Below are positions 19,943 to 46,073 of a stretch of 64,000 nt of DNA, one piece after another. The notes under the pieces were generated by a model, which was given only the letters and a program-made list of their open reading frames with translations, searched no databases and was not told the DNA's origin. The translations under genes and the position numbers were made by a program. Numbering within the stretch: position 1 is the stretch's first letter; every line of letters starts with the position of its first letter. Source of the stretch: Candidatus Kaftiobacterium secundum (GTDB taxonomy: Bacteria; Sysuimicrobiota; Sysuimicrobiia; Sysuimicrobiales; Kaftiobacteriaceae); contig JAVKHY010000002.1 in the NCBI GenBank assembly GCA_031459765.1, forward strand, positions 257,350-321,349. Reading direction: 5' to 3'.

Positions 19943-19961
19943 CGCGGCGGCCGCGATCCGC

Positions 19962-20135: not shown

Positions 20136-20152
20136 GGAGGTTGACGCACTCC

Positions 20153-21142: not shown

Positions 21143-21186
21143 CATCGAAGGTGGCTCGACAACAGAGCGAGACCGCCGGGGGAGCC

Positions 21187-22455
21187 ATGGCCCACGCCAA
21201 GATCGCCGTGACGCGGGAGAATCCCTGGGAGATGGCGCTGCGGCAATTCAACCGCGCTGCAGACCACCTCCCCCTCAAGCGCGGCATCCGCGACTTCCTC
21301 GTCTATCCCCACCGCGAACTCACCGTCAACTTCCCGGTGAAGATGGACGACGGCTCGGTGCGCATCTTCACCGGCTACCGCGTCCACCACAGCACGGTGC
21401 TGGGCCCCACCAAGGGCGGCCTCCGGTACGCCCCCCAGGTGGACCTGGACGAGGTCCGGGCCCTGGCCATGTGGATGACCTGGAAGTGCGCGCTCATGCA
21501 CCTCCCCTACGGCGGCGCCAAGGGCGGCGTCGCCGTGGACCCGACGGCGCTCTCCCCGGCCGAGCTGGAGCGCCTGACCCGGCGCTTCGCCACCGAGATC
21601 AGCGTGGTCATGGGTCCCCAGAGCGACATCCCTGCCCCCGACGTAGGCACCAACGAGCAGATCATGGCCTGGGTCATGGACACCTACAGCATGCACCGCG
21701 GCCACTCCGTGCCCGCCGTCGTGACCGGCAAACCGGTCAGCATCGGCGGCTCGGCGGGGCGGCGTGAGGCTACCGGTCGGGGCGTGATGATCGTCGCGCG
21801 GGAAGCGGCACGGCGGTGGGAGCGACCCTTCGCCGGCGCCTCCGTGGTCGTGCAGGGCTTCGGCAACGTCGGTTCGGTAGCCGCCACGTTGCTCCACGAT
21901 CAGGGCTGCCGGATCGTCGCCCTGAGCGACATCCACGGCGGCGTCTACAACCCCCGGGGCCTCGACCCGCGGCGGGTGCTGGCCCACGTCCGGGACACCG
22001 GACGCATCGCCGGCTTCCCGGAGGGGGAAGCCGTCACGAACCAGGAACTCCTGGAGCTACCCTGCGACATCCTCGTCCCCGCGGCCATCGAGGGCCAGAT
22101 CACCCGCGCCAACGCCTCGCGGATCCAGGCGAAGATCGTCGTCGAAGGCGCCAACGGTCCCACCACCCCCGACGCCGACGACATCCTCACCGACCGCGGC
22201 GTCCTCGTCGTCCCCGACATCCTGGCCAACGCCGGCGGGGTGATCGTCTCCTACTTCGAGTGGGTCCAGGACCTCAGCTCGCTGTTCTGGAGCGAGGAGG
22301 AGATCACCGCGCGCCTGGAACCCATCATGATCAACGCCTTCGACCGCGTCGTCCGCACCGCGCAGGAGCATGAGGTCGATCTGCGCACCGGCGCGATGAT
22401 CTGCGCCGTGCGCCGTGTCGCCGACGCGCTGATGACGAGGGGCATCTACCCCTGA
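21187..22455 (+). CDS. gdhA: glutamate dehydrogenase (Glu/Leu/Phe/Val dehydrogenase family)
   Basis: GGAKGG catalytic-lysine motif, GFGNVG Rossmann, ~422 aa. Confidence 0.85.
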   Translation: MAHAKIAVTRENPWEMALRQFNRAADHLPLKRGIRDFLVYPHRELTVNFPVKMDDGSVRIFTGYRVHHSTVLGPTKGGLRYAPQVDLDEVRALAMWMTWKCALMHLPYGGAKGGVAVDPTALSPAELERLTRRFATEISVVMGPQSDIPAPDVGTNEQIMAWVMDTYSMHRGHSVPAVVTGKPVSIGGSAGRREATGRGVMIVAREAARRWERPFAGASVVVQGFGNVGSVAATLLHDQGCRIVALSDIHGGVYNPRGLDPRRVLAHVRDTGRIAGFPEGEAVTNQELLELPCDILVPAAIEGQITRANASRIQAKIVVEGANGPTTPDADDILTDRGVLVVPDILANAGGVIVSYFEWVQDLSSLFWSEEEITARLEPIMINAFDRVVRTAQEHEVDLRTGAMICAVRRVADALMTRGIYP

Positions 22456-22458
22456 CGG

Positions 22459-22689
22459 TCACTCCCTCGCGGCCCGGATCTTCGTCCCGCGGAATGGCCC
22501 CCCGAACAGCGGGGCGAACAGGCAGACATCGAAGAGACCGGCCAGCAGGGGGACGACCCCGACGACGGTCACCACGATCCCCGCGGTGCCCCTGAGCCCC
22601 AGCAGCCCCCAGCCCATCAGCGCCAGACCCGCGACGATGCGGACCAGGCGACCGGCGGCCGAGGCCATGAACCTGACGAACGGATTCAT
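22459..22689 (-). CDS. small membrane protein, DUF2892/YgaP-like
   Basis: 76 aa, two hydrophobic helices, GWG...G pattern. Confidence 0.4.
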   Translation of the reverse strand: MNPFVRFMASAAGRLVRIVAGLALMGWGLLGLRGTAGIVVTVVGVVPLLAGLFDVCLFAPLFGGPFRGTKIRAARE

Positions 22690-22762
22690 CTTCTCCTCCC
22701 CCCTTCAAACCTGCTGCTCATCCTCATGATGGGACAGGGAGGAGTCCCTGTCGGTGACAAGG

Positions 22763-23461
22763 TCACCGAGCCGCACGCGCCTCCAGCCCCGCGGCGTCCA
22801 GCACCCGGATCTCCCTCCGGCCGACCCGCAGCAACCCGGCGCGGGCGAACTCTTCCAGCAGGCGGCTGACAACCTCGCGGGAGCTGCCCAGCTCCGAAGC
22901 GATCTGCTGATGGGTCATGCGCACCGGGTTCTGCAGGCGCGCCTGCGCCAGCAGCAGGGCGGCCAGGCGGCTGTCCAGGCGGCGGAAGACCGCCTCGTCC
23001 AGGGTCTCCATCACGCGGGCCAACCGCTGCAGGAGCATCTCGAAGACGAAATCCTGCCACAGATCAACATGGCGGACCCAGCGCCGGAAGGTCTCGGCGG
23101 GAATGAACAGGGCCTCGGCGTCCTGCTCGACCGTGGCCACGGCAGGGAACGCCCTCCGGTTCAGGATGGCGCCGGCCGTGAGCACGCAGGACTGGCCCGT
23201 CCCGAACCGGTAGAGGGTAATCTCCCGGCCGCCCGACCCGATGGCGTAGACGCGGACCACACCCGAGAGGAGCAGCGCGATTCCTTCCACCCGGTCGCCT
23301 TCGACGAAGATATCGCGGCCCGCCCGGAGGCGGACAAGGGAGGCGGCCTCGCGGATCTCCTCGGCCAGCCGGGGGTCGGCGCGCCGCAGGAGGGGCAGCG
23401 ACTGGAGGACCCGGTCGTAGCTCTGCTCGTCAAGCATCGGCGCGTCTATCGTTCCATCCAT
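22763..23461 (-). CDS. Crp/Fnr-family transcription regulator (no N-terminal Cys cluster; DNR/NnrR-like)
   Basis: cNMP-binding-like beta-roll plus C-terminal HTH (HQQIASELGSSREVVSRLL). No FNR-type Cys cluster. ATG at 23461. Confidence 0.7.
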   Translation of the reverse strand: MDGTIDAPMLDEQSYDRVLQSLPLLRRADPRLAEEIREAASLVRLRAGRDIFVEGDRVEGIALLLSGVVRVYAIGSGGREITLYRFGTGQSCVLTAGAILNRRAFPAVATVEQDAEALFIPAETFRRWVRHVDLWQDFVFEMLLQRLARVMETLDEAVFRRLDSRLAALLLAQARLQNPVRMTHQQIASELGSSREVVSRLLEEFARAGLLRVGRREIRVLDAAGLEARAAR

Positions 23462-23585
23462 GGGGACCGCTTCCCTGGAGGCGGCCGGGGTCCGACCCAC
23501 CCCAGGCGGGAGGGGCCGGAAGACGGCCGAAGAGGAGAAGGCGGCGCGGGCGTCGGATAGCGTCACGTCCTCACGGAGGTGCGGC

Positions 23586-24008
23586 ATGGAGATCGCGTGC
23601 ATCCTCTACGCCACCGACGGATCGTCCCACGCGCGAAAAGCGCTGGACTGGGTGGTGGACATCGCCCGGCGTCGGCGGGCCCGGGTGATCGTGGTCACGG
23701 CCTATGAGCCGATTCCGCGGGAGCTGGGGTCGCCATACCTGGAGGAGTTGATGGCCCGTCGCCCGGCGGAAGCCCGGGCCACCGCGGCGGAGGCCGAGGC
23801 CGTGCTGCGCCGCGAAGGGATTGACCATGAGCTGGAAGTGCTGGAGGGACCCGCCGCCGACGCCATCCTGAGGGTGGCACGCACCCGCCGCTGCGACCTC
23901 ATCGTCATGGGCTCCCGGGGACTGGGACGGCTGGAGGTCGCCCTGCTGGGCTCGGTGAGCCAGCGTGTCGTGCAGGAAGCCCCCTGCCCCGTCCTGATCG
24001 TGCGCTGA
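23586..24008 (+). CDS. universal stress protein (UspA family)
   Basis: ILYATDGS...VVTA...LIVMGSRGLGRLE..GSVSQRVVQEAPCPVLIV. Confidence 0.75.
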   Translation: MEIACILYATDGSSHARKALDWVVDIARRRRARVIVVTAYEPIPRELGSPYLEELMARRPAEARATAAEAEAVLRREGIDHELEVLEGPAADAILRVARTRRCDLIVMGSRGLGRLEVALLGSVSQRVVQEAPCPVLIVR

Positions 24009-24024: not shown

Positions 24025-24408
24025 TTACTCTATGCCGACATGGATCGGGATTTGGGCGGCGAACGCCCGCCCTCCGACGACCCCCCGGATCTGCAGTTGC
24101 CACACCCCGTCCATGGAGAAGGTGTGCGAGGCCTCGTACCGCCCCGCCCCCGCCGGGTGCAGGACGATGCGCTCCGCGCCGTGGGACATCTCCGGCATCG
24201 CGAGGCGTGCCTCGCTGATCCGCACGGCCACGGGGCGGCCGGCGCGATCCCGACAGCGCACCACAAGCGTGACCGGACGCAGCGCCGCGACCGCCCTCGG
24301 CACCGTGGATACCTCCACCGTGATGTCGTCGGAGGCCGCGGCCTGCGGGCGGCCGCCGCACCCGGCGGCCAGGACCGCGATCGCGGCGAGCACGACGAGG
24401 CGGCTCAT
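24025..24408 (-). CDS. YtkA/FixH-like lipoprotein, last gene of the nos operon (possible Cu-handling substitute for NosL)
   Basis: Lipobox LAAGC, ~105-aa periplasmic beta-rich domain with a Met/His patch (LAMPEMSHG). 4-nt overlap with nosY. Confidence 0.4.
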   Translation of the reverse strand: MSRLVVLAAIAVLAAGCGGRPQAAASDDITVEVSTVPRAVAALRPVTLVVRCRDRAGRPVAVRISEARLAMPEMSHGAERIVLHPAGAGRYEASHTFSMDGVWQLQIRGVVGGRAFAAQIPIHVGIE

Positions 24409-25229
24409 CCCTCCACCGCCGCGAGAAACCGGGCCCGTCCGGCCAGGTAGGCGACTGCCGTCCACAGGATCAGGACCAGGACGAGCGCGGCCGCGAGCCC
24501 CGCCGACCCGAGACGGTCCACGGCGTAGAGACCCACGGGACCGGTGAGGTCTGCGCTGCCGGTGATTCCGACGATGGCGGCCAGCCGGTAGGCGCCGACC
24601 GGGTTCAGGGACCCCAGGATGAGGAGCGCCGGCGCCGGCAGACGCAGCACCATCGCCGTCCCCAGCAGGCCGAGATCGCTGAGGACCACCAGCCCCAGCC
24701 ACGCGCCCAGCGCCGCTCCGAGCGCGCGGCTCCGCGACGGGGAGGCGGCCGAGATCAAGAAGCCCGTGGCCAGCATGGCCAGCGCCAGCAGGACGGACAG
24801 CGCCACCAGCCAGAGGAAGGCCGGGATTCGCTCCGTCCCGGCGCGGAGGGCGAGGAGCAGGCCGGCCGCGCCGAATCCCACGACGACCGCCGCCGTCATG
24901 CCCCAGGCCACGCCGCAGAACTTCCCGGAGAAGACGATCCGGCGGTCCACAGGCTGACTGAGGACCAGGGTCAGCGACCCGCTCTCACGCTCGCCGGCGA
25001 TCCACACCGCCCCGACCGTGAGCCCGATCAGCGGAATGAAGAGCATGCCCAGGTGGATCAGCGTGGCGGCGGCGCGACCGAAGGCCGAAACGCCCAGGAC
25101 GTCCACGGCGGCCAGGGCGACCAAGGCGGAAGCCAGGACGAGCAGGCCGAAGGCACCGGCCGCCGCCAGGAACCACCGGTCGCGCAGCACGGCGCGCGCC
25201 TCCCAGCGGGCAACCGCTGGCAGGCTCAT
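24405..25229 (-). CDS. nosY: ABC-2-type permease NosY
   Basis: 6-TM ABC-2 permease directly downstream of nosF/nosD, translationally coupled. Confidence 0.7.
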   Translation of the reverse strand: MSLPAVARWEARAVLRDRWFLAAAGAFGLLVLASALVALAAVDVLGVSAFGRAAATLIHLGMLFIPLIGLTVGAVWIAGERESGSLTLVLSQPVDRRIVFSGKFCGVAWGMTAAVVVGFGAAGLLLALRAGTERIPAFLWLVALSVLLALAMLATGFLISAASPSRSRALGAALGAWLGLVVLSDLGLLGTAMVLRLPAPALLILGSLNPVGAYRLAAIVGITGSADLTGPVGLYAVDRLGSAGLAAALVLVLILWTAVAYLAGRARFLAAVEG

Positions 25230-26071
25230 CGGGTCGCCTCCCGCAGCACGTCGAGGAGCGCCGGCTCGTGGATGTCCACGGGACGACGGCCGAGGGCCTC
25301 GAGCACGGCGCCCAACGCGCCGTCGCGCACCCGCAGGTGGTGTGTCCCGTTACTGCCGGACACGACGATGACGCCGTCCGGTAGCACCGGCAACGGCCCG
25401 GAGGTCGTGAGCTCCAGCCAGCGGGCCGACCGCACCGTCTCCATCGCCGCGTCCGCGCGGACCGCGCCCTCCTCCAGCAGCACGACGCGGTCGACGAGCG
25501 ACTGGAGGCCGTTCAGGTGATGCGTGGCCACCAGCACGGTGCGCCCCTCGGCCTGCGCCTCTTCGAGCCACGCTCGGAGCAGTCCCTCCCCGCCGGCATC
25601 CAGATGGCTGGCCGGCTCGTCCATCAAGATCACGGGGGGATCCCCGACCCGGGCCACGGCCAGCGCCAGTCGTCGTCCCATCCCCCCGGACAGGTGCCCC
25701 ACGGGCGTGGCCGCCTCCCGATCGAGGCCGACCCTGGCCAGCACCGGCAGCGGATCGGCCGGAAGGCCCCTGATTTCCTGGACGTAGGCGACGACCTCGC
25801 CCGTCGTGAGATGGGGCGGGAACGCCGGCGTCTGCGGGACATAGCCCACCAGCGCCCGGGCCCGCAGCCCCTCGGCGCGGGCGTCGTGTCCGCCGATGGC
25901 GACCGCGCCCTCGTAAGGGATGAGGGCCAGCAACGCGCGCAGCAGCGTGGTCTTGCCGGCCCCGTTCGGGCCGACCAGGGCCACCCGCTGTCCGGCCGGA
26001 ACGGTCAGGGTCACAAACCGCAGCGCCTCGCGTTCGCCGAATCGCACCGTCAGGTCACGGACCGTGATCAT
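25226..26071 (-). CDS. nosF: ABC ATPase NosF
   Basis: Walker A GPNGAGKTT, signature LSGGMGRR, Walker B ILMDEP. Coupled to nosD and nosY. Confidence 0.8.
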   Translation of the reverse strand: MITVRDLTVRFGEREALRFVTLTVPAGQRVALVGPNGAGKTTLLRALLALIPYEGAVAIGGHDARAEGLRARALVGYVPQTPAFPPHLTTGEVVAYVQEIRGLPADPLPVLARVGLDREAATPVGHLSGGMGRRLALAVARVGDPPVILMDEPASHLDAGGEGLLRAWLEEAQAEGRTVLVATHHLNGLQSLVDRVVLLEEGAVRADAAMETVRSARWLELTTSGPLPVLPDGVIVVSGSNGTHHLRVRDGALGAVLEALGRRPVDIHEPALLDVLREATR

Positions 26072-27432
26072 GCCGCCGACCTCCGGGAAGCCGTCGACCC
26101 CCGGAAAGATGAGCGCGCCGCGCCCATCGCCGCCAGGCCGGCGGCGGTCAGGGCCAGCGAGACGAGGGCAAAGGGCAGGCTGGCTCCGGCGCCGCGGAAG
26201 GCCCGGGGGACGTCGGGACGCATGAGGGGGGAGGGGTCCTCGAGCAGGACCTCCGGGGCGAAGATCGGCAGCGCCCGCGCGGCGAAGTCCACGGCCGCCG
26301 CGGCAATGCTCCCGCGCAGCCAGGCCAGTTCCGGAATGCGGTCGCCCAGCGCTTCGAACCACTGGCGGGCCCGGTAGGGGGTGTCGCCGACGCCGTCACC
26401 CCGGAGGTCCAGTCCGGCGTAATCGCTCCAGTAGTTCCCGCGCCCGCCCCGGCTCCAGCGGTGCGCGCCGGACCGGCCGCCGTCGATCCGCACCTGGAGG
26501 ACGTTCCCGTCCAGAACGTTGCCCGCGACGACGTTCCCTCCGGCGCTGCCCAGCACCTGCAGCCCGATCTCGTTGCCAGCGATGACGTTGTCGATGATCT
26601 CGCTCCGCGCGGTGAGCAGGCGGGGCGTGCCGTCGATGTACAGACCGACGTGGTTGCCGGCCAGCAGGTTGGACCGGATCAGCACGTCGTCAGACTCCTT
26701 GAGGGCCAGACCGACGCCCGTGCTCCCCCGGTGGCGCAGGAAACGGTTCCCTTCCACCCGCACGCCGGTGCTGTACATGATGTAGGCCCCGACGGCGTTG
26801 TCCTCAAAGTGGCCGTCCAGCAGCCGCGCCGCGTCCGCGTACATCAGGTGCACGCCGTAGCGGGAGCGCCGGATGTCGGCGGCGTACAGCGTGGTGCCCC
26901 GGGCAAACCACAGCAACAGGTCGCGCACCCGCTCCAGGCGCAGCTCCGACAGCGTCACCCCGTGGCTGTACCAGAGCCGGATGCCGTCGCCGCGGCGGCT
27001 GAGGGGAAGGTCGTACCCGCGCACCGCCACTCGCCGGATCACGGCTCCGTGCGCCTGCTTCAGATTCACCCCGAAGAGCACCTCCTCCAGGGCGAGGTCT
27101 TCCAGCACGACGCCCGGGGCGCCGACGAAGATCCCGGCATCCTCGGTGTTGAGGTCGCGGCCGCTGCGGCGCAGGGTCAGCCGGCTGAGGACCACATCCG
27201 GCGCTTCGATCCGGACGATCGTGCCCCGCCCCCCGCCGTCGATCACCGCGCCGGGTGCCCCGACGATCCGCAGCGGCTTGCGGATGACCACCGGCCCCGC
27301 GGCCACGCCGGCGACCACGATCTCGCTCCCGGGCGGCGCCCGATCGATGCGGGCCTGCAGCGCATCGGCGGCGGCGGCCGGAGGGGAGCTGGTCAGGACG
27401 CCCAGGATGGCCAGGAGCAGGAGGGGCCTCAT
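26068..27432 (-). CDS. nosD: periplasmic copper-binding maturation protein NosD (right-handed beta-helix repeats)
   Basis: Signal peptide, then repeated NxxxGxxI/V parallel beta-helix repeats and C-terminal TM. Canonical position between nosZ/nosB and nosFY. Confidence 0.8.
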   Translation of the reverse strand: MRPLLLLAILGVLTSSPPAAAADALQARIDRAPPGSEIVVAGVAAGPVVIRKPLRIVGAPGAVIDGGGRGTIVRIEAPDVVLSRLTLRRSGRDLNTEDAGIFVGAPGVVLEDLALEEVLFGVNLKQAHGAVIRRVAVRGYDLPLSRRGDGIRLWYSHGVTLSELRLERVRDLLLWFARGTTLYAADIRRSRYGVHLMYADAARLLDGHFEDNAVGAYIMYSTGVRVEGNRFLRHRGSTGVGLALKESDDVLIRSNLLAGNHVGLYIDGTPRLLTARSEIIDNVIAGNEIGLQVLGSAGGNVVAGNVLDGNVLQVRIDGGRSGAHRWSRGGRGNYWSDYAGLDLRGDGVGDTPYRARQWFEALGDRIPELAWLRGSIAAAAVDFAARALPIFAPEVLLEDPSPLMRPDVPRAFRGAGASLPFALVSLALTAAGLAAMGAARSSFRGSTASRRSAA

Positions 27433-28019
27433 CTCCGTCGCCACCGGACCAGGTTGTACAGGGCCAGCAGGGCCGTCGCCGCCGCACAGAGGAAGCCCCA
27501 GCTGAACATCGCGTAGGTGGAGAACTGCATCACCGTCCCCCTGCCGACAATCGCCGGCATGAAGGGGTCCACCCGAATGGGCGCGGCGGGATCGAGGGAG
27601 TGGCCGAAGGTCCACAACCAGTAGGCCAGATCGCCGACCACGCCCAGGGGAAAGACCACCGCCGGCGCCTGGAGCAGCGGGCCGAGCCGGCCCAGGAACG
27701 GCGAGGCGCCCACGGCCAGCACCCCGCCGAGGACGATCGGGACGGCCAGGCGGCGCTCCAGCGGCGCGGCCACCTCGAGAGGCTTCATCCCGATGTAGTG
27801 GTTGAGAATGCTGATCTCCGACGATTCGCCGGTCACTCGGGTCAGGTAGACTGAGGCGCGCAGGCCGCCCGGATACTGGGGGGCATACAGGGTGATCCGC
27901 CAGTAGGGGAGGATCAGCGACAGGCCCAGCAGCGCCGCCGCCACCCAGGAGCGGAGGTGAAGGCCCGTGGGGCGGCGGGCCTGCGCCAGTTCGCTCCGAA
28001 CGACGGCGAGTGTCACCAC
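27429..28019 (-). CDS. nosB: NosB-like transmembrane protein (clade-II nos hallmark)
   Basis: ~196 aa with 4-5 TM helices, immediately downstream of nosZ and overlapping nosD by 4 nt. Confidence 0.45.
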   Translation of the reverse strand: MVTLAVVRSELAQARRPTGLHLRSWVAAALLGLSLILPYWRITLYAPQYPGGLRASVYLTRVTGESSEISILNHYIGMKPLEVAAPLERRLAVPIVLGGVLAVGASPFLGRLGPLLQAPAVVFPLGVVGDLAYWLWTFGHSLDPAAPIRVDPFMPAIVGRGTVMQFSTYAMFSWGFLCAAATALLALYNLVRWRRR

Positions 28020-28080
28020 AGTTCGCGTCCTCCCGCCGAAGAAGATTCTGGACAGGGGGCCGGACTCCGGCCCCCTGCCG

Positions 28081-30057
28081 TCACGGCGCCACTTCCAGGT
28101 ACCCGGCCATCTCCAGGTGCAGCGCCGAGCAGAACTCGGTGCAGTAGAAGGGGAACACCCCGGGCTTATCCGCGACGAACTTCACCGTTTCGAACTTCCC
28201 GGGCTCCAGGCTCAGGTTGATGTTGTAGCGGTCGATGGCGAAGCCGTGGATCGCGTCCTTGGCCCGCTCGATGTTCGTGATGTGCAGAATCACGGTGTCC
28301 CCGCGCCTGACCTGGATGCGGTCCGGCGTGAAGTGGCTGCGCATCGCGGTCATCCAGACCTCGACGGTGGTGCCCTTACGCACGATGCGCTCCTTCCCGG
28401 CGCCTGTCGTGTTGGGGTCCACCTTCATGGTCAGAGGGTTGGTGCCGACCTCGGGGTAGACCGCCCAGGACTTCACCCTGTCCAGAGGGATGATCTGCGC
28501 CAGGTGCGGTTCGGCCAGCCCCACCGGGGTGTCGCTGAGGAGCACCATCTTCTCCCCGCTGATGTCGATGAGCTGGAGGTTCTGCGGGAACAGCGGGCCG
28601 ACGTTGCTGTACCGGTCCACCGACCACTTGTTCAGGGCTACCAGGTACCTGCCGCCCGGCTTCGCCGTATCCCCGGTCACCGCGGCCAGGTGCCCGATGT
28701 TGTAGTGCACGGGCAGCTTGTCCACGAGCTTCCAGGCCTCCCCGCCCTTCTTGTAGGGGGCGCCCAGCGTCCACTTGGCCACCGCGCTGTCCAGGAACAG
28801 GCTGGTGTAGGCGTTGCCCTTGTCATCGAACTGGGTGTGCAGCGGCCCCAGGCCGATCTTCACCTGCGCCTCGACGACCCGGTCGAAGGCCAGGATCGGC
28901 ACCCCGTAGGGGTCGGTCCCGCTGAAGGCCTTGTCCTTGATCGCCTGCTGGATCTTGCGGTGACTGTAGATGGTGACGTTGGGATCGAGCTTGCCGCCGA
29001 CGACGATGTAGTCTCCCCGCGGGGCGATGTCGTTCCCGTGCGGGCTCTTCGGCTCCGGCGCAAAATAGAGGACCCCGTTGGCCACCGCGTCCTTCAGGGA
29101 GAGGACCTTCATCCCGTTGACCACGGTCCCCCGGCCCTGGGCGATGAGCTGGGCGGCCTTCTTGTAGTGGATGATGTGCAGGTAGTCCATGTCCCGGGCC
29201 GAGGCCCCGATCTCCACCGGGGGCTGCTTGGCCAGGGTGCCGCCGATGGCGCGCTCCGTGTTGAAGGAGTTCATGTACACCCAGCCGTCGCTCTCGAACT
29301 TGCCGAAGTCGGCCAGGTCCTGCCAGTAGGGCGGGAGCTCGATCTGGAAGGACTGGGCCGGGTCGATGCGCCCCCGGGCGCGGTCGAACTTCCAGAAGGT
29401 GGCCAGGCCGCGGTAGTGCTGGTTGTAGTTCTCCTGGGTCAGCGGCACGTAGCGGAACGGGAAGGGGGCCGCGTACTGTGTGGCCTCCAGGACGTACTCG
29501 GTGTTGGGGCTGACCACCGCCCCGTGGTTGCTGGCGGCGTTGGGGTTGCGCACGATCTGCTTGGTGGAGAAGTCCCGCAGATCGATCACCGCCATCCGGG
29601 CGTTGGCCTTATCGTTGATGAACAGGAACTGGCCGTCGTACTCGGCGTTGGTCTCGCTGATCGCCGGGTGGTGCGTGTCCCCCCAGCTCAGGGCGTCGCG
29701 GAGCTCCGCCTGCTCGCGGAGGATCTCCGCCGTTTCCTTGCTGAAACCGTAGCCCTGCCAGGATTCGGGGCTGAAGACGCCGATCACGCGCAGGAGGCGC
29801 ATCGACGGCAACCCGAAGACCAGCACCTGCCCGGACTGCCCGCCGGAACTGAACATGAGGTAGTCGTCGTACTTGCCCGGCGGCACATAGGTCTGGACCG
29901 CGGCGCGGACCTGGTCGGGGGTCAGCCCCTTGGCCTTGATCAGTTGCTCCAGGCTCGGCGCCGTCGTGGCCGTGGACACCGTGAACCGCCCCCCCGCGGC
30001 CGCCAGGACCAGCAGGACCAGTGCCGCTCCTCCTGCCACCAGCCATCGTCTCCTCAT
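28081..30057 (-). CDS. nosZ: nitrous-oxide reductase NosZ
   Basis: 658 aa. C-terminal CuA motif FYCTEFCSALHLEMAG (Cx3Cx3Hx2M). Seven-bladed propeller region with the conserved His clusters expected for the CuZ site. N-terminal signal MRRRWLVAGGAALVLLVLAAA. RBS GGGGAGG. Confidence 0.9.
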   Translation of the reverse strand: MRRRWLVAGGAALVLLVLAAAGGRFTVSTATTAPSLEQLIKAKGLTPDQVRAAVQTYVPPGKYDDYLMFSSGGQSGQVLVFGLPSMRLLRVIGVFSPESWQGYGFSKETAEILREQAELRDALSWGDTHHPAISETNAEYDGQFLFINDKANARMAVIDLRDFSTKQIVRNPNAASNHGAVVSPNTEYVLEATQYAAPFPFRYVPLTQENYNQHYRGLATFWKFDRARGRIDPAQSFQIELPPYWQDLADFGKFESDGWVYMNSFNTERAIGGTLAKQPPVEIGASARDMDYLHIIHYKKAAQLIAQGRGTVVNGMKVLSLKDAVANGVLYFAPEPKSPHGNDIAPRGDYIVVGGKLDPNVTIYSHRKIQQAIKDKAFSGTDPYGVPILAFDRVVEAQVKIGLGPLHTQFDDKGNAYTSLFLDSAVAKWTLGAPYKKGGEAWKLVDKLPVHYNIGHLAAVTGDTAKPGGRYLVALNKWSVDRYSNVGPLFPQNLQLIDISGEKMVLLSDTPVGLAEPHLAQIIPLDRVKSWAVYPEVGTNPLTMKVDPNTTGAGKERIVRKGTTVEVWMTAMRSHFTPDRIQVRRGDTVILHITNIERAKDAIHGFAIDRYNINLSLEPGKFETVKFVADKPGVFPFYCTEFCSALHLEMAGYLEVAP

Positions 30058-30083
30058 GGTGACCTCCCCTCTCGAGATGCCGG

Positions 30084-30482
30084 TTACTTTACGACCAGCT
30101 GGATGTGCATGCCCGCTTCCTTATGGCCGGCCACCTTGCAGAAGATGGTGTACGTGCCGGGTTTGAGATCCACGGTGAGCGTGGTGGACTGTCCGGGGCG
30201 CAGCGCCTCGGTGCCCTTGTCCAGCCCCTCGATCAGGAAGTCGTGCTCCACGGTGCCCACGTTCTCGATCCGGAAGGTGACGGGGCCGGCGGAGACCTCC
30301 GTGGGCTGCATCTCGTACTTGAACTCGCTCATCTTCACCGTGACGGTCTGACCGGCCGCCGTGGGCGCGGCCGGGGGCTGCGCGGCCGGCGGGGTCGGCT
30401 GCTGGGCCGGCTGCTTTCCTCCGCAGGCCGCCGCCAGCAGGGCGACCATCACCATCAGGATCACCGCACCATACCTCACCAT
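30084..30482 (-). CDS. lipoprotein type-1 (blue) cupredoxin, likely electron donor to NosZ
   Basis: Lipobox LAAAC, Pro/Ala linker, cupredoxin fold with His...Cys-x4-His-x4-Met (EHDF...CKVAGHKEAGM). Immediately upstream of nosZ. Confidence 0.7.
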   Translation of the reverse strand: MVRYGAVILMVMVALLAAACGGKQPAQQPTPPAAQPPAAPTAAGQTVTVKMSEFKYEMQPTEVSAGPVTFRIENVGTVEHDFLIEGLDKGTEALRPGQSTTLTVDLKPGTYTIFCKVAGHKEAGMHIQLVVK

Positions 30483-30519
30483 TCCTCACCTCCGTGTTCT
30501 GTGCCGTTCCTGCGTGCCG

Positions 30520-30957
30520 CTACCCCGCCGCGCGCGCCTGAGGCGCCCGCCTGCCGCGGCCGTTCTCCGGCAGCTGCGCGGCCAGCTCCGCGACCGTCAC
30601 CGCCAGTTCCCGTTCCACCGCGGCCTCGGCGCGCGCCAGGGTCGCCCGCACGGGGCACGGCTGCTGGCACGGGCAGTCCCCCCACAGCGCACACAGGTTG
30701 AGGGCCAGCGGGCCCTCGGCCGCCTCCAGCACGGCGCGCAGGGTCAGGCCGGCCGCAGGCCGGGCCAGTTCCACTCCGCCCCGGATCCCCCGGAACGTGC
30801 GCAGGATGCCGGCCCGGCCCAGACCCTGGACGACCTTGGCCATGTAGGCCGGCGGGATCCCCTGACGCCGCGCGATCTCCGACGAGCGGGCCCGCCCGTG
30901 GCGGGCAAGGTCCAGCACGGTGCGGAAGGCGTAGTGGGCGTTGCGGCTGAGTCGCAT
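30520..30957 (-). CDS. Rrf2-family transcription regulator with cluster-ligating Cys triad (NsrR/IscR-like)
   Basis: N-terminal wHTH (YAFRTVLDLARHG), Cys residues in CALWGDCPCQQPC. First gene of the nos operon. Confidence 0.75.
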   Translation of the reverse strand: MRLSRNAHYAFRTVLDLARHGRARSSEIARRQGIPPAYMAKVVQGLGRAGILRTFRGIRGGVELARPAAGLTLRAVLEAAEGPLALNLCALWGDCPCQQPCPVRATLARAEAAVERELAVTVAELAAQLPENGRGRRAPQARAAG

Positions 30958-30967
30958 GGAGAAATTG

Positions 30968-30988
30968 GACAAAGTCTCTATCTTTGTC
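30968..30988 (-). promoter_or_regulatory. perfect 7-bp inverted repeat GACAAAG-N7-CTTTGTC in an AT-rich patch ~15 bp upstream of the rrf2 start; candidate Rrf2 operator
   Basis: Read directly from sequence. Locally low GC within a 70% GC genome. Confidence 0.35.
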
Positions 30989-31088
30989 GGATTGAGCCTA
31001 CAGGAGGCGCGGCCGGGCGGGTATCAGGCGGGCGTCCGAATTGCATCGGGCCTGCGCCCGATAGAACCGATCAGAGCGGGAGGAGGCT

Positions 31089-31502
31089 TCAAAGGGATTG
31101 CAGGCGGCAAAGACGGCGGGGACCGGGATCAGACCGCCGGAGGCCACCCGTAGCGCCGACGAATCCCTCGACGGAAACGAGCCGTTTGGCCACCGGATCG
31201 ACGGCCAGGAACAGGCTCTCCAGGGCCACGGCTCCCAGCAGCGGCGGGCCAGCCGGAGCTACGAAGCAGGGCGTCGTGACCTCCTGACCGTCCAACGCCA
31301 GTCGCACCTCGGCCACCGGCCAGATCTCCCGCCGCCCCCCGGCGATGACAACGGGATGGCGGCGGTGCGGCGCGAGCCCGAGGGCGCTGGCGAGATCCTG
31401 AGGCACCACGAGCAAAGTGGCTCCCGTGTCCACCAGGAGTTCGACCTCCTGGCTGGACCCGGTGGGCCCCGTCAGCCGCCCGCGCACGCGAAAGAGACCC
31501 AT
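31089..31502 (-). CDS. retropepsin-like (clan AA) aspartic protease domain protein
   Basis: LLVDTGA catalytic motif and size ~137 aa. Confidence 0.5.
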   Translation of the reverse strand: MGLFRVRGRLTGPTGSSQEVELLVDTGATLLVVPQDLASALGLAPHRRHPVVIAGGRREIWPVAEVRLALDGQEVTTPCFVAPAGPPLLGAVALESLFLAVDPVAKRLVSVEGFVGATGGLRRSDPGPRRLCRLQSL

Positions 31503-31541: not shown

Positions 31542-32441
31542 CTATCGCCGCGGGACGCGGACGAGGAGCACCGGGCGGGTGCTGTGCCCGACGATGCGCG
31601 CCGCGACGCTGCCGGCCCACATCGCGTCCACCCCGGAGCGGCCGTGGGTCGCCATCACAATGAGATCCACCGCCCGCCGCGCCGCGACATCCAGCAGGGT
31701 CCCGACGGGCTCGCCCCGCTCGACGAGGACCTGGCTCCTCGCCCCGACCGCCTTCGCCGCCGCTGTGGACTGCAGGTAGTCCACGGCATCGGCGGCCTCC
31801 GAGTCGAGCAGGGCGGCGGCCGCGGTGGGCATGAGCCGGGTGGAGGCGGCCCGTTCGCCGGAGATGGTCTGCACCGTCGGCACCACCATCACCAGGAGGA
31901 GCTCCGCATCGCAGGCCCGCCCGATCTCGACCGCCGCAGGGAGGGCGGCCTCGGCCGTGGGGCTGCCGTCCAGGGGCACCATGATCCGCCGGCAGGCAAA
32001 GGGTTGCTCCCGCCCGGCCGGCGTGGGCCGCACCAGGAGGATCGGGATCTGGCCGCGTCGCAGCACCTGTTCGGCGACGCGGCCGAACAACAGGCCGCGC
32101 AGCCCGCCGCGGCCGTGCGTGCACAGCACCACCAGGTCGGCGGCCTCCTCGGCGCCGCCGCTCACGATGCTGGCGGCCACGTCGTCCGTGGAGGCATCGA
32201 GGTGCGTGCGGACGGCGACGCCGCCTGCGCGCAGCCAGGAGGCCACCTCCGCGAGGTACGCGGCGGCCTCGGCTTCGGCGGTGAGGTGCCGCTGACCGTG
32301 GATCGTCACGGGCGCGCCCCGCTCCACGGCATGGAACAGGGTGATCTCCGCCCCCAGATGCCGGGCCAGGGCGAGGGTGGCGGGGAGGGCCGCTTCTGCC
32401 AGAGGGGAACCGTCCAGGGGCACCAGCAGGCGCCGGAACAT
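31542..32441 (-). CDS. tandem universal stress protein (two UspA domains)
   Basis: Two repeats each with ...LVPLDGS...HGR(G/S)G...G(R/S)VA..V....PVLLVR. Confidence 0.75.
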   Translation of the reverse strand: MFRRLLVPLDGSPLAEAALPATLALARHLGAEITLFHAVERGAPVTIHGQRHLTAEAEAAAYLAEVASWLRAGGVAVRTHLDASTDDVAASIVSGGAEEAADLVVLCTHGRGGLRGLLFGRVAEQVLRRGQIPILLVRPTPAGREQPFACRRIMVPLDGSPTAEAALPAAVEIGRACDAELLLVMVVPTVQTISGERAASTRLMPTAAAALLDSEAADAVDYLQSTAAAKAVGARSQVLVERGEPVGTLLDVAARRAVDLIVMATHGRSGVDAMWAGSVAARIVGHSTRPVLLVRVPRR

Positions 32442-42131: not shown

Positions 42132-42665
42132 CTACGACGCCCGGCGAATGCCCATGAGCAATGCGACCAGGTAGGCGTACGTCGTCCAGATTCCGCCGAG
42201 CAGCACAGCAACGACCAGAATCTGGACAGGGGGATAGGGACTGATGAACCCCGGTTGCGGGCTCATCCCGCGAAGCACATCCAGTCCGGGGCGTCGCTGC
42301 GGATCCCGCACTCTGGGCGAGAGGAGCTGGAGGCCGGCCTGGAGGGTCGCGCTCTCGCCGGCGACCGCCCGCACCTCGGTGTAGCGCGGCGGGTCGTTCA
42401 GCGTGACGGACGCCGTCCCGGCGGCGTCCGCCTCCACCTCTGCCAGCTCCAGCCATCCGAAGGCCGTCCGGGCCAGGAACGTCACCGCCGTCCCGCCGGC
42501 GGGCGCTCCCGCGTCGTCCTGCACGGTAGCCACGACGCGCGTCGAGCCGTCGGCGCGGACCTCCTTGAGCAGTGAGATCCTGGCCGGCTCCGCCCCGTCC
42601 GCGGCGGAGGCGCCGCCCGCGACGAGCAACAGGCCCAGGACCGCGAGGCTACGGAACAGGCGCAT
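42132..42665 (-). CDS. exported protein with C-terminal membrane anchor, unknown function
   Basis: Signal peptide, Ala/Gly-rich ~120-aa domain, terminal TM (ILVVAVLLGGIWTTYAYLVALLMGI). Overlaps the 3' end of the nrfD-like gene by 17 nt. Confidence 0.35.
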   Translation of the reverse strand: MRLFRSLAVLGLLLVAGGASAADGAEPARISLLKEVRADGSTRVVATVQDDAGAPAGGTAVTFLARTAFGWLELAEVEADAAGTASVTLNDPPRYTEVRAVAGESATLQAGLQLLSPRVRDPQRRPGLDVLRGMSPQPGFISPYPPVQILVVAVLLGGIWTTYAYLVALLMGIRRAS

Positions 42666-44217
42666 GCGCCACCTCTCCGGCACTGGCCTCAGTCCCCCGC
42701 TCTTCCCGCGTCTCCCAGATCGAGACGATCGGGAACAGTTTGCTGAACAGGATGTAAATGAGTGCAAAGCCCGCCAGGGCCGCCGCCGTGATCGACCACT
42801 CCACCCACGTCGGCCGGTAGACCGCCCAGCCCACTGGAGCACGCCGGATCGGTAAGAACGGATACTGAAGGGTGGGCACGATGATGACGAAGCGCTTCAG
42901 CCAGGCTCCGACGTTGACCAGGAGCGAGGCCACGACCGCGGCCGCGATCGGGCGCGCTCGGAAAAACGGCAGCAGCGCGACAAAGAGCCAGATGCCAGCG
43001 GCGGTCAACACCCACGGCAGCAGCGCACGCAGGGCGGCGACGTCGCCCAGGGCCGCGGCGGGCGACCCCGAGGACGAGACGAAGACGCGCAGGCCGAGGG
43101 TGGCGGCCAGCGCGGCCAGCGCCGGTCTGGGCTGAAGCAGGGGGGCGCTCTGCAGGCGCGGCACCCAGGAGATCGTCGGCAGTGTGAGGAGCAGCACGGG
43201 GACCAGCAGTCCGCCGATCTGTGTAAACCAGAAGATGCGCGCATAGGGCCCGCTGACCACCGCGCTCAGGTAGCCGCGCTCGTGTGTCGCCAGTTTGTAC
43301 AGCGGCGTCCAGTACTCGTTGAAGGTGAAGTAGGCGTAGATCAGGCCCAGCGCGATAAGAAGATAGCCCATCCGCTTGAAGTGGCGCACCGTAATGTAGT
43401 CCTCCAGATGGTACGCCCACCGGAAGGCGGCCATCGCGGTGATCACGGCGGCTGCGCCGCTGAACAAGGCCCCCGAGACGAAGTACGGCCCGAAGATCGT
43501 ACTGTTCCATCCCGCGCGCAGCGTCATCGCCATGATCCAGGACACCACCGTGTGCACCGAGATCGCCACGGGGATGATCAGCACCGCCAGCACGCCGATG
43601 ATCGTTTCCAACTGGTGCTTCTGCCCGGGCGTCCCGCGCCACCCTAGGGCCAGGATCGTGTACAATCGCCGCCGCCACGCCGGCCCCCGCGCATAGTGCT
43701 CCCGCAGCAGCGCGATGTCCGGGATCATGGGCACGTACAGGAACAGCGTGCTGCCGGTCAGGTACGTCGTGATCGACATGATGTCCCACAGGATGGGCGA
43801 CTGCAGCCGGCCGTGCAGGAGGAGATTCAGGATGCGGTCCGGCCGCCCCATGTCCACGAAGGGCATCAGCGCTCCCATCAGCAGCGAGGCGAAGGTAATC
43901 GCCTCGGCCATCCGCGTGATCGGCCGCCGCCACTCCGCCCCGGTGAGGCGCAGGATGGCGGACATCAGCGCACCGACGTGGCTGACGCCGATGAAAAAGA
44001 CGAAGTTGGTGATGTAGACGCCCCACATGAAATTGTCGCGCAGCCCGGTCACGCCCAGCCCGTAACGCAGCTGCACGCCGTAGGCGATGAGCCCCCAGAG
44101 GATGATGGCCACGAGCCCGCCGACCAGCGCGTAGTAGCGCGGGCCGGTCGCCTGCAGCGAGTCGAGCAGGCGCTGCTCGCGAGGTGCGAACGCCTGACGG
44201 CGGCGCCCGTCGATCAC
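42649..44217 (-). CDS. NrfD/PsrC-family polytopic membrane subunit (quinol-interacting), ~12 TM
   Basis: 522 aa with ~12 hydrophobic helices typical of NrfD/PsrC/ActC-type quinol oxidoreductase subunits. GTG start overlaps the stop of the FeS gene (GTGA). Confidence 0.7.
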   Translation of the reverse strand: MIDGRRRQAFAPREQRLLDSLQATGPRYYALVGGLVAIILWGLIAYGVQLRYGLGVTGLRDNFMWGVYITNFVFFIGVSHVGALMSAILRLTGAEWRRPITRMAEAITFASLLMGALMPFVDMGRPDRILNLLLHGRLQSPILWDIMSITTYLTGSTLFLYVPMIPDIALLREHYARGPAWRRRLYTILALGWRGTPGQKHQLETIIGVLAVLIIPVAISVHTVVSWIMAMTLRAGWNSTIFGPYFVSGALFSGAAAVITAMAAFRWAYHLEDYITVRHFKRMGYLLIALGLIYAYFTFNEYWTPLYKLATHERGYLSAVVSGPYARIFWFTQIGGLLVPVLLLTLPTISWVPRLQSAPLLQPRPALAALAATLGLRVFVSSSGSPAAALGDVAALRALLPWVLTAAGIWLFVALLPFFRARPIAAAVVASLLVNVGAWLKRFVIIVPTLQYPFLPIRRAPVGWAVYRPTWVEWSITAAALAGFALIYILFSKLFPIVSIWETREERGTEASAGEVAHAPVP

Positions 44218-45146
44218 GGGTGGACCCCCCTGGTCGCCGGCTGCGGCTCATCCGGCGGCGCCGGATAGACCCGCTTGCGCGGCGGCAGGTAGTATACGCG
44301 CGGCTCGGTGCCCAGCTCTTCCAGGAACCGATAACCGGCGTTCTGGCGGATCAGCTCGGAAAACCGCACCGTCTCCCCCTGGGAGTTGGTTACGGCATCC
44401 TCCTCCTGGTCGCCGAAGTAGATGGCGCCCATCGGACAGGCCGCCACACAGGCCGGCAGCCTTCCCTCTTTGACGAGCCCCGGACAGAAGATGCACTTCT
44501 CGGTGGTGCCCTTGCGGTGGCGTTGGTTCCATTCGTCGGAGTACGGGAGGCTCTGCTGCGCCTCGGTCTCGGGCGGCTGGACCCAGTTGAAACTCCGTGC
44601 CCCGTACGGACAGGCGGCGATGCAGAAGCGGCAGCCGATGCAGCGCGAGGTGTCCTGCATCACGATCCCGTCCTCGCGCTTCCAGGCCGCGCTGACCGGA
44701 CAGACCTTGACGCACGGCGCGTTGTCGCACTGCATGCAGGGCCGGGGAAACCAGTACGGGGCGGCGACCTCATTGTCCCGCAGCTCGTAGACGCGGATCC
44801 ACTCCTGCCCGGCGGGGGTGAAGTGCATCCCCTGGCAGGCACGGGTGCACTCCCGGCACCCGTCGCACCTGGCGAGGTCGATAACCATCACCCACCGCCG
44901 CCCCGGGATGCCCGGCCCCGTGGGCTGCGGGGGCGATGCGGCGTAGGCCACCGCTGCCGCCCCGGCCCCGCCGGTCAGACCGTTCAGCTCGACCAGCGTG
45001 CGGTCCACCGTGGGCGCGGCGACGAGCGCGGGCACCGGCGACCTTCGGCCAAGGGGCAGGCGGCGGAGGAAGCGGCCGCCGCCCAGCGGGACGAGGGTCG
45101 CGGCGCCCGCCGCCAGCGTCCGCAGGAAGGTCCGCCGGGTGAGCAT
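44214..45146 (-). CDS. TAT-exported 4Fe-4S cluster protein, NrfC/PsrB/ActB-like
   Basis: Twin-arginine signal MLTRRTFLRTLAAGAATLVP. Four ferredoxin-type Cys motifs (CDGCRECTRAC, CMQCDNAPC, CIGCRFCIAACP, CIFCPG...CVAACP). No CxxCH. Confidence 0.75.
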   Translation of the reverse strand: MLTRRTFLRTLAAGAATLVPLGGGRFLRRLPLGRRSPVPALVAAPTVDRTLVELNGLTGGAGAAAVAYAASPPQPTGPGIPGRRWVMVIDLARCDGCRECTRACQGMHFTPAGQEWIRVYELRDNEVAAPYWFPRPCMQCDNAPCVKVCPVSAAWKREDGIVMQDTSRCIGCRFCIAACPYGARSFNWVQPPETEAQQSLPYSDEWNQRHRKGTTEKCIFCPGLVKEGRLPACVAACPMGAIYFGDQEEDAVTNSQGETVRFSELIRQNAGYRFLEELGTEPRVYYLPPRKRVYPAPPDEPQPATRGVHP

Positions 45147-45150
45147 GGGC

Positions 45151-45600
45151 TCACCGGCCGGGCAGGACGACGAACTGCCCGATCTGATCGGGATGATCCC
45201 GGGCGCATCCGGCCAGAGTGCACGCATAGTGGTAGATGCCGGGCCGGGCGGCCACAAACCGCAGCGTAACGGTCTCCCCCGGCGCGATGGTCGGAACGGC
45301 GACGTTCAACGCCCCCAGACCGAAGCCGTGGGAATCCTCCTCGTCGGTGTTGGTGACCCGCAGGATGACGGTGTCGCCGGCGTTGACGACAATCACATCG
45401 GGTATCCAGTGGTGGACTTTCCGCTCGCCCGCCTCGAAGGAGTGCAGGTAGAGGCCGACCTGCCGGACCTCGGGCGTGACCGGCGCCGTGGCCGAGACCG
45501 GAGGCACGTAAATCTGGAAGACGACATACGCGCCCCCGATGGCCAGCAGCGCGGCGAGCAGGACCGCCCCGAAGATCGTCCATCCGCCGCTATTCATCAC
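45151..45600 (-). CDS. membrane-anchored CuA-like cupredoxin (paralog A; axial Gln variant)
   Basis: N-terminal TM, cupredoxin strands (IPDVIVVNAGDTVILRVTN), upstream His (SHGF), then C-x4-C-x3-H-x2-Q (CTLAGCARDHPDQ). Confidence 0.5.
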   Translation of the reverse strand: MMNSGGWTIFGAVLLAALLAIGGAYVVFQIYVPPVSATAPVTPEVRQVGLYLHSFEAGERKVHHWIPDVIVVNAGDTVILRVTNTDEEDSHGFGLGALNVAVPTIAPGETVTLRFVAARPGIYHYACTLAGCARDHPDQIGQFVVLPGR

Positions 45601-46073
45601 TTCACCACGACCACGCCCTTCATGCCCTGCTCGTAGTGGCCTTCCACCATGCAGCCCATCTCAAAGGTGCCGGTGCGCCTGGGGGTGAACGTCAGCTCGG
45701 CCGACCGGCCGGGGCCGACCTCCACCTCGAAGATCTCCTCCCCTTCGACGGCAATGCCGCCACCTTCCACCTCGACCTCAACCCCCTTGAAGTACGAGTG
45801 CTCCTCCGCCCAGGCGTGCATCTCGCTCTCGTCCATCTTGCCCGCGGGCGTGTCGTAAACCATGAACTCGTGCTTGACCTTGCCCTTGTTGAGGAGCGTA
45901 ATCTGCGTCTTGGTCCCGGCCTGCAGCGTGACCCTGGCGGGAGTGAAGCTCATCTCGCGCAGGGTGATGGTCAGCTTCTGCGCCTTCGCCGCGCCCAGCG
46001 CGCTGCCCACCGGCAGCGTCGCCAGAAGCACGGTCACCGCCAGGAGACCCGTCCACCACCGCATCGTCCTCAC
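45597..46073 (-). CDS. secreted type-1 cupredoxin (paralog of the gene at 30084-30482)
   Basis: Signal peptide, His (KHEF), then C-x4-H-x4-M (CMVEGHYEQGM). C-terminal region aligns with the nosZ-adjacent cupredoxin (TFEMGCMVEGHYEQGMKGVVVVK vs TIFCKVAGHKEAGMHIQLVVK). Confidence 0.65.
   Translation of the reverse strand: MRTMRWWTGLLAVTVLLATLPVGSALGAAKAQKLTITLREMSFTPARVTLQAGTKTQITLLNKGKVKHEFMVYDTPAGKMDESEMHAWAEEHSYFKGVEVEVEGGGIAVEGEEIFEVEVGPGRSAELTFTPRRTGTFEMGCMVEGHYEQGMKGVVVVK

Follow-up and report, generated by a model that had tools for sequence, protein, structure and literature searches.

A compact clade II nitrous oxide reductase operon of Sysuimicrobiota with a cupredoxin gene before nosZ and a YtkA/CrdA-type lipoprotein gene at the usual site of nosL

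To our knowledge, nitrous oxide (N2O) reductase, NosZ, is the only biological sink for N2O, and predicting N2O use from genomes depends on knowing which accessory genes the enzyme requires. A nosB gene is regarded in the literature as a hallmark of the clade II enzymes. The clade II cluster of Wolinella succinogenes, said to have been described by Hein et al. in 2017 with the order nosZ-B-D-G-C1-C2-H-F-Y-L, joins a Sec-type NosZ, a nosB gene directly after nosZ, and NosDFY maturation to a NosGH quinol dehydrogenase, the cytochromes NosC1/C2, and NosL. The Gram-positive clusters of Geobacillus thermodenitrificans NG80-2 and Bacillus azotoformans (clusters 2 and 3) consist of a nosZ-B-D core with nosF and nosY and contain no nosR, nosX, or nosGH. 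In these clusters a gene for a lipoprotein electron carrier directly precedes nosZ, and nosL is absent (PMC3475470, 10.1101/2024.05.17.594689). Here we describe a nos cluster in 64,000 nucleotides (nt) of DNA from Candidatus Kaftiobacterium secundum (Sysuimicrobiota; assembly GCA_031459765.1, contig JAVKHY010000002.1, positions 257,350 to 321,349), a stretch with 70% G+C that we call the window. It is a Gram-positive-style compact clade II operon in which a blue copper protein takes the place of the haem carrier and a nos-dedicated YtkA/CrdA-type lipoprotein that of NosL, and which is led by the gene for a four-cysteine Rrf2 regulator and a candidate operator.

An earlier reading of the window, made by a model from the letters alone (the sequence-only reading), had listed nine open reading frames (ORFs) on the minus strand at 24025-31502. 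All nine are present at that place, and the family assignments were upheld (Table 1). NosZ scored 837 bits with the model for the Sec-dependent, clade II enzyme (TIGR04246; cut-off, 625), and its scores with the models for the twin-arginine translocation (TAT) type (TIGR04244; 424 bits) and for clade III (NF052460; 194 bits) were below their cut-offs of 625 and 700, respectively. These curated NCBIfam scores, together with the position of nosB, confirmed the assignment to clade II. The ligand motif of the binuclear CuA site, C-x3-C-x3-H-x2-M, is present in the C-terminal cupredoxin domain (HGF...YCTEFCSALHLEM). The N-terminus begins MRRRWLV, and its arginines raised the question of TAT export; those of orthologs begin MKRNVW, MRWSRIG, and MVSMTRTRL, and the arginine pair is not conserved. 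nosB begins 61 nt after nosZ, and nearly all of the 80 related loci have a homolog there. Its product matched no Pfam or NCBIfam model; three of its segments exceeded the hydropathy threshold, and it may have about four transmembrane (TM) helices. NosD scored 358 bits with TIGR04247 (cut-off, 300; PF05048 E value, 5.7e-31), and its gene is followed by those for an ABC ATPase and an ABC-2 permease, giving a complete NosDFY set. Starting with rrf2, the first four genes are separated by 37, 26, and 61 nt, and each later gene overlaps the one before it, which is the layout of a single operon.

We compared this arrangement with that in related loci, which are labeled with L-numbers. The order nosZ-nosB-nosD-nosF-nosY is near-universal in the 80 loci that carry the nearest NosZ relatives, which come from many phyla. 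The longer order rrf2-cupredoxin-nosZ-B-D-F-Y-ytkA is complete in L001, L083, L085, and the source genome (L086), and L002 contains the same eight genes with rrf2 inverted. The cupredoxin gene is missing from L090, and both it and rrf2 are missing from L089; the contig of L081 ends within nosZ, so that genes upstream of nosZ there lie outside the readable sequence. The same gene order in independent, diverged contigs indicates that the arrangement did not arise by chance. The relatives with the YtkA-type operon are metagenome-assembled genomes (MAGs) of CSP1-3/Sysuimicrobiota. The closest named genome is that of Candidatus Calidihabitans tengchongensis, with a NosZ 80% identical, which PMC11604079 places in this phylum. 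This paper and a second one report that nosZ is widespread in the phylum, and the text of theirs that was searched contains no description of the cluster. A cluster of another kind occurs in Candidatus Fervidifonticultor of the same phylum (L063, 1000-4200), where the order is rrf2-nosZ-nosL-nosB, neither a cupredoxin nor a YtkA gene is present, and the palindrome ahead of rrf2 is another one, AAGAAT-N6-ATTCTT. At least two types of nos cluster thus occur in the phylum.

The sequence-only reading had noted that a Met/His-bearing lipoprotein occupies the place of the copper chaperone NosL and had suggested a profile comparison with NosL, YtkA, and FixH. The 127-residue protein scored 44.2 bits with YtkA (PF13115; cut-off, 25.9) and matched FixH more weakly, and a hidden Markov model (HMM) of NosL did not match it, so that the lipoprotein belongs to the YtkA family. 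Its gene overlaps nosY by 4 nt, where nosL normally sits: of the 54 related loci that could be read past nosY, 39 have a NosL-like ORF next, and a cytochrome c then occurs in 21. Among 5.8 billion proteins clustered at 90%, the family has 42 relatives. All members (P0001-P0040) with a readable contig directly follow nosY (L001, L002, L081, L083, L085, L089, and L090). An identical protein is recorded in a MAG labeled "Armatimonadota bacterium" (GCA_031081605.1, contig JAVHMC010000001.1). Identity is 42% to the protein of L081, 37% to that of L083, and 34% to that of L089, and about 35 to 45% across the relatives that share the module. The subfamily is narrow, and our searches recovered no members from Bacillota. 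Where 700 nt or more of sequence followed nosY, 49 loci had NosL only, 13 had a YtkA-like protein only, 2 had neither, and none had both.

The conserved residues and the predicted fold of the lipoprotein both point toward copper. In a 40-sequence alignment, the lipobox cysteine C17 and the methionines M71, M74, and M99 are invariant and H76 is conserved in about 90% of the sequences; the Met and His residues lie in the motifs MPxMxH and TFSMDGxW. An AlphaFold (AF2) model built from this alignment is confident (predicted local distance difference test score, 86) and is an all-beta sandwich. Its top Foldseek matches were the apo and Ag-bound structures of Helicobacter pylori CrdA (9ll2/9ll4; E value, 1.8e-5; template-modeling scores, 0.64/0.74). 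By sequence, the family profile also found CrdA 9ll2, deposited as "Copper resistance protein" (E value, 2e-8), in an alignment that pairs MPEM with MPEM and SMDGxW with SMNGTW. The lipoprotein is therefore homologous to copper- and silver-binding proteins. It shares the YtkA domain, the extracytoplasmic Met/His-rich immunoglobulin-like fold, and the link to copper with CrdA and with CtaK (YtkA) of Bacillus subtilis, a lipoprotein needed, along with Sco, to assemble cytochrome oxidase's CuA center (PMC13344008, PMC9145763). However, its identity to CrdA is only about 20%, the His-rich C-terminal tail found in CtaK is missing from it, and it is encoded in a nos operon rather than in an oxidase or copper resistance context.

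Like NosL, which is presumed to supply Cu(I) for NosZ maturation (PMC6530538, PMC8457098), the lipoprotein is small and is encoded right after nosY, although its fold and sequence are unrelated to those of NosL. The most economical reading makes it a membrane-tethered chaperone for Cu(I) whose dedicated task is NosZ maturation. We propose it as a stand-in for NosL that could feed NosD or could serve the CuA site only. A YtkA-domain protein has been stated to replace NosL in G. thermodenitrificans (PMC13068155), and clusters without nosL have been reported in Bacillota (10.1101/2024.05.17.594689). Alternatively, the protein might be a CuA-specific chaperone like CtaK that does not substitute for NosL, with the CuZ site receiving its copper either via NosDFY unaided or from the product of a nosL gene in another part of the genome. 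The tie between CtaK and CuA assembly in B. subtilis suggests this, as does the description of NosL as CuZ-specific in PMC6530538. A third hint comes from L080, the nos cluster of a deltaproteobacterial MAG outside the 700-nt count, which contains NosL together with a distant YtkA-like lipoprotein gene (about 15850-16269, plus strand; motifs WMPAMGHG...MPGMW). The two chaperone types can thus coexist and may have distinct roles. We nevertheless regard the CuA-only alternative as somewhat unlikely, given the strict either/or occurrence of NosL and YtkA in the 62 loci readable after nosY, the 4-nt overlap at the usual nosL site, and the lack of any NosL in the approximately 82 kilobases (kb) seen.

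The sequence-only reading had also reported that NosL, NosR, NosX, and NosGH/NosC are missing. We built an HMM from the NosL proteins of related loci (39 sequences); it matched in 55 of the 80 loci and gave no match at an E value of 10 or lower in the 64-kb window, L001, or L002. Pfam scans covered most of the other window genes, those left out being small or assigned by eye, and found no FMN_bind/NosR, ApbE/NosX, or NapGH-like gene among the genes scanned. Between 24025 and 31502, Pfam revealed no iron-sulfur (Fe-S) genes; the sole Fe-S/quinol module in the window is NrfCD-like and lies at 42.6-45.1 kb. The absences held outside the window as well, where a nosL or nosR gene had been named as a possibility: in the flanking 10 kb or so on either side, public gene calls include no NosL, NosR, or ApbE.

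The same reading had described the cluster as lacking cytochromes. This is correct for the cluster and for the window, where no six-frame ORF of at least 60 residues contains a CxxCH motif, and incorrect for the genome. On the same contig, about 7 kb outside one window edge, a decahaem c-type cytochrome (ten CxxCH motifs; L094, 3573-4628) is encoded in a TusA/DsrE/Hdr-like sulfur cluster, and a second multihaem cytochrome (L095, 2577-3704) is encoded about 7 kb outside the other edge. These two genes rule out the working idea of a cytochrome c-free lineage. The organism can thus make c-type cytochromes, and only the neighborhood of the nos genes is without them.

The gene directly before nosZ encodes a cupredoxin that scored above the cut-offs of both Cupredoxin_1 (48.8 bits) and Copper-bind (24 bits). 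A lipobox cysteine, Cys20, is followed by a Pro/Ala/Gln-rich tether, and the type 1 copper ligands H80, C115, H120, and M125 are complete, with the pattern VEH...C-x4-H-x4-M invariant in six orthologs. The gene is found upstream of nosZ in L001, L002, L059, L083, and L085. Cupredoxins such as pseudoazurin are established electron donors to N2O reductase in other bacteria. Because the cupredoxin occupies the position of the monohaem lipoprotein NosC in Bacillus and Geobacillus, it is a natural candidate for the direct donor to CuA, and by this analogy we propose that it donates electrons to NosZ. If it were instead a copper-handling or resistance protein of the CopI/EfeO kind, NosZ would have to draw its electrons from c-type cytochromes or other cupredoxins. 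Weak matches to the NCBIfam models for EfeO (44 bits) and CopI (30 bits), the absence of the gene from L089 and L090, and the multihaem cytochromes encoded in the genome would be in keeping with such a role. However, the EfeO and CopI scores are far below cut-offs of 270 to 280, the type 1 ligand set is complete and invariant, the gene sits at the place of the donor NosC in Gram-positive clusters, and a close type 1 paralogue is encoded in an NrfCD module in the same window. We therefore judge a copper resistance role improbable and retain the proposal that the cupredoxin is the donor.

This NrfCD-cupredoxin module, 12 kb upstream of the nos operon, encodes a Big_1-like TM protein, an NrfD-like quinol-interacting membrane subunit, an NrfC-like ferredoxin with a TAT signal and four 4Fe-4S clusters, a type 1 cupredoxin paralogous to the one before nosZ, and a membrane-anchored CuA-like cupredoxin. 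Two more CuA-like cupredoxins and a two-component system are encoded at 46226-49518 (the minus-strand cupredoxin region being 48627-49518). In alignments, the Cys and His residues of the anchored cupredoxins follow the pattern of the binuclear CuA site in NosZ, with 30 to 38% identity. The module contains up to three membrane-anchored cupredoxins and no haem c.

We found the module in several contexts: 6 kb from the nos genes in L089 (14955-18402), about 50 kb from them on the contig that carries L085, in L092 (9537-13466), and, in L093 (8560-13408), directly after an aa3-type oxidase operon of the order COX2-COX1-COX4-COX3. The distance on the L085 contig and the oxidase operon beside it in L093 rule out a nos-specific module. 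These varied contexts suggest a general quinol:cupredoxin oxidoreductase, a haem c-free analogue of complex III. It is plausible that the module is the electron source for the nos cupredoxin. The operon lacks the NosGH quinol dehydrogenase, the NosC1/C2 cytochromes, and the NosL of Wolinella, and the NrfCD-like and cupredoxin genes 12 kb away, although not nos-specific, are a possible stand-in for NosGH/NosC. A bolder extension would assign to CSP1-3/Sysuimicrobiota a copper-only, haem c-free periplasmic chain for both N2O and aerobic respiration, in which a minimal NrfC/NrfD-type quinol dehydrogenase with stand-alone CuA-like and type 1 cupredoxins, in the role of complex III, feeds the nos cupredoxin and NosZ as well as an aa3 oxidase and the YtkA/CrdA-type chaperone loads NosZ via NosDFY. 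We offer this tentatively, as a scheme rather unlikely to be right as a whole.

At the head of the operon, the regulator matched the Rrf2 family models PF02082 (97.9 bits; cut-off, 30; E value, 7e-28) and TIGR00738 (93 bits; cut-off, 73.3). Its true start is the ATG at 30957 rather than the TTG at 30972, as judged from the start of the family match and a public gene call of 145 residues. Four cysteines, C89, C95, C97, and C101, form a C-x5-C-x-C-x3-C pattern common to six nos-linked orthologs, and the protein probably carries an Fe-S cluster. It shares the winged-helix Rrf2 fold and a C-terminal cysteine cluster with RsrR, NsrR, and IscR but differs from them in its four-cysteine pattern, in scores below every equivalog cut-off, and in an operator sequence of its own. 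Its position adjacent to nosZ resembles that of Rrf2 genes enriched beside the clade II nos clusters on marine Bacteroidetes scaffolds (PMC6264515). In eight Phycisphaerales loci, an Rrf2 gene of a different type comes after nosY or nosL.

The sequence-only reading had called this regulator NsrR-like, and a true NsrR orthologue that senses nitric oxide (NO) would be expected to derepress nos when NO appears. The Rrf2 family membership, the cysteine cluster, and the location ahead of a denitrification enzyme lend this some appeal, and Rrf2/NsrR regulators have been discussed for clade II nos clusters (PMC6264515). Closer comparison did not sustain the label. The NsrR equivalog model (NF008240) gave 38 bits against a cut-off of 182 and was outscored by the RirA, SufR, and IscR models, all of them below their own cut-offs. 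Among solved structures, the closest match was RsrR, a [2Fe-2S] redox sensor (6hsd; E value, 2e-13), which was far better than NsrR (5n07; E value, 5e-5), and the protein has four cysteines rather than the three of the NsrR pattern. The candidate operator is also unlike the usual NsrR site. We consider an NsrR orthologue quite unlikely, and NO sensing by this protein is a guess.

The candidate operator is a perfect palindrome, GACAAAG-N7-CTTTGTC, just upstream of rrf2. It is unique in the window, where no further copies indicative of a regulon were found with up to two mismatches allowed. L001, L059, L083, and L085 have the palindrome at the corresponding position, and its spacer varies in sequence. 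L001 and L083 carry a paired G/C exchange at the innermost position of the arms (GACAAAC...GTTTGTC) that preserves the symmetry, as expected of an operator bound by a dimer. Gene order and this conservation supported the earlier claim that a regulator gene preceded by a palindrome opens the operon, with rrf2 as its first conserved gene. Immediately 5' of the palindrome, a TAnnnT hexamer (TAGGCT in the window) has invariant T, A, and T positions in a five-genome alignment. If this hexamer is a -10 element, as we infer, binding of a protein to the palindrome would cover the site where transcription starts. Farther upstream, a second palindrome, ATCGGG-N6-CCCGAT, is kept in the window, L001, and L085 and has one mismatch in L059; a CCGCCTGATACC block (31020-31031) in the spacer upstream of rrf2 is common to L001, L059, and L085. 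The second palindrome and this block could represent an activator site or a hairpin that ends the upstream gene. A terminator scan gave nothing useful.

A Crp/Fnr-family regulator gene (22763-23602) lies beside the operon. Nss proteins regulate nos in Wolinella, and by analogy this gene could encode a second nos regulator.

Taken together, these observations make it fairly probable, in our judgment, that the locus is a working clade II N2O reductase operon, a lineage-specific variant of the compact nosZ-B-D-F-Y core, that operates as follows. A dimer of the four-cysteine Rrf2 protein would bind the 7-N7-7 palindrome between the -10-like element and its own start codon and would thereby adjust expression of the entire operon to a redox, O2, or NO-type signal. 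NosZ would be exported unfolded via Sec, and its copper centers would be assembled outside the cytoplasm by NosDFY and the membrane-tethered, Met-rich Cu(I) chaperone of the YtkA/CtaK/CrdA kind instead of NosL. NosB would support activity, as in other clade II systems. The type 1 cupredoxin whose gene precedes nosZ, tethered to the membrane, would pass electrons to CuA and would itself probably be reduced by the quinol-oxidizing NrfCD-type module with its own cupredoxins. The sequences and models show which genes are present and in what order, that the module, the ligand residues, and the operator are conserved, and that the chaperone is homologous to copper- and silver-binding proteins; how copper is delivered, which way electrons travel, and what the regulator senses are what we infer.

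Several observations weigh against this mechanism. Scanning for the sigma-70 consensus did not reveal a full promoter. A nosL gene could be present in another part of the 421-kb contig or of the genome, and the L080 cluster has NosL and a YtkA-like lipoprotein side by side. The cupredoxin has its weak likeness to EfeO and CopI, and its absence from L089 and L090, like that of rrf2 from L089, means that neither gene is obligatory. The NrfCD module is only loosely linked to nos and is also found beside an oxidase operon. In addition, PMC11604079 infers that nosZ in Sysuimicrobiota was mostly acquired horizontally, which raises the prospect of a decaying or silent remnant of such a transfer. However, all reading frames are intact, codon usage (coding potential) scores are high, and the metal ligands, the module, and the operator are conserved across diverged genomes. 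A remnant is thus extremely improbable, and a functional operon is the reading that we adopt.

The comparison with Gram-positive clusters also qualifies the novelty that the sequence-only reading had implied, which was overstated in view of published precedents (PMC13068155, 10.1101/2024.05.17.594689, PMC6264515). The carrier encoded before nosZ is a type 1 cupredoxin here and the monohaem cytochrome NosC there, the maturation genes run D-F-Y here and D-Y-F there, and only here does the operon open with an Rrf2 gene and its operator. Each of the substitutions has a precedent or a close analogue, and the copper-based quinol-to-cupredoxin module nearby is the more novel lead. A widespread soil and hot spring phylum that has been reported only as "nosZ-positive" nevertheless carries a conserved nos module without NosL or a cytochrome donor, and such genomes would be misjudged in surveys for which nosL or nosC/nosGH is a requirement. 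With its few members and clear candidate ligands, the nos-restricted YtkA subfamily lends itself to a simple test of copper delivery to NosDFY: does it depend on NosL itself, or will any Cu(I) lipoprotein serve? Likewise, the Rrf2-operator pair is a ready-made system for studying the regulation of clade II nos genes, which is poorly known.

Table 1. Features of the nos operon, its upstream region, and the NrfCD-cupredoxin module (window positions)
Feature	Position	Strand	Basis or remark
rrf2 (Rrf2 regulator, 145 aa)	30520..30957	-	PF02082, TIGR00738; first conserved operon gene
Type 1 cupredoxin lipoprotein, 132 aa	30084..30482	-	Cupredoxin_1, Copper-bind
nosZ, 658 aa	28081..30057	-	TIGR04246
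nosB-like integral membrane protein, ~195 aa	27429..28016	-	Position directly after nosZ, hydropathy
nosD, periplasmic beta-helix maturation protein	26068..27432	-	TIGR04247, PF05048
nosF, ABC ATPase	25226..26071	-	ABC_tran, E value 3.8e-26; position kept in relatives
nosY, ABC-2 permease	24405..25229	-	ABC2_membrane_2, E value 5.7e-25; position kept in relatives
YtkA/CrdA-type lipoprotein, 127 aa	24025..24408	-	PF13115
Retropepsin-like gene	31089..31502	-	Asp_protease_2, E value 3.5e-10; outside conserved module
Candidate operator, perfect palindrome GACAAAG-N7-CTTTGTC	30968..30988		Ends 11 nt before rrf2 ATG
Conserved TAnnnT hexamer (TAGGCT), possible -10	30995..31000	-	T, A, T invariant in 5-genome alignment; immediately 5' of palindrome
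Second palindrome ATCGGG-N6-CCCGAT	31045..31062		Kept in window, L001, L085; one mismatch in L059
NrfCD-cupredoxin module	42132..46064	-	Pfam matches; alignment to NosZ CuA domain

The retropepsin-like gene, which the sequence-only reading had put first in the operon, does not belong there. In L001, L059, and L085, a tandem-domain universal stress protein (USP) gene is followed by the conserved spacer and then by rrf2, and the retropepsin-like gene is absent between the USP gene and rrf2; the same genome (L086) is the one place where we found it, inserted upstream of the conserved promoter-proximal spacer. Its absence in relatives and the conserved DNA downstream of the insert indicate a genome-specific insert rather than the first gene of the operon.

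Five USP genes, one of them with tandem domains, flank the nos operon (17886-24008 and 31542-32441). Located 4 to 5 kb upstream of it are genes for a CueP-like periplasmic copper-binding protein (35138-35527, minus strand; PF21172, E value, 1.5e-22) and a TlpA/ResA-like thioredoxin with a WCxPC motif (34509-35090, plus strand). L001 and L085 retain the gene order tlpA-arsR-nramp-USP-rrf2, which suggests that the thioredoxin may help to keep the CuA cysteines reduced. An Rfam scan of the window found only an unrelated thiamine pyrophosphate (TPP) riboswitch (RF00059, 57 bits; 145-259, plus strand), which precedes genes for a ThiW-like transporter and thiamine salvage and biosynthesis (326-5609). 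Between the nos operon and the NrfCD-cupredoxin module lie hypE, hypD, hypC, and hypF (35707-40418, minus strand), which fit the hydrogen-oxidizing lifestyle proposed for the phylum.

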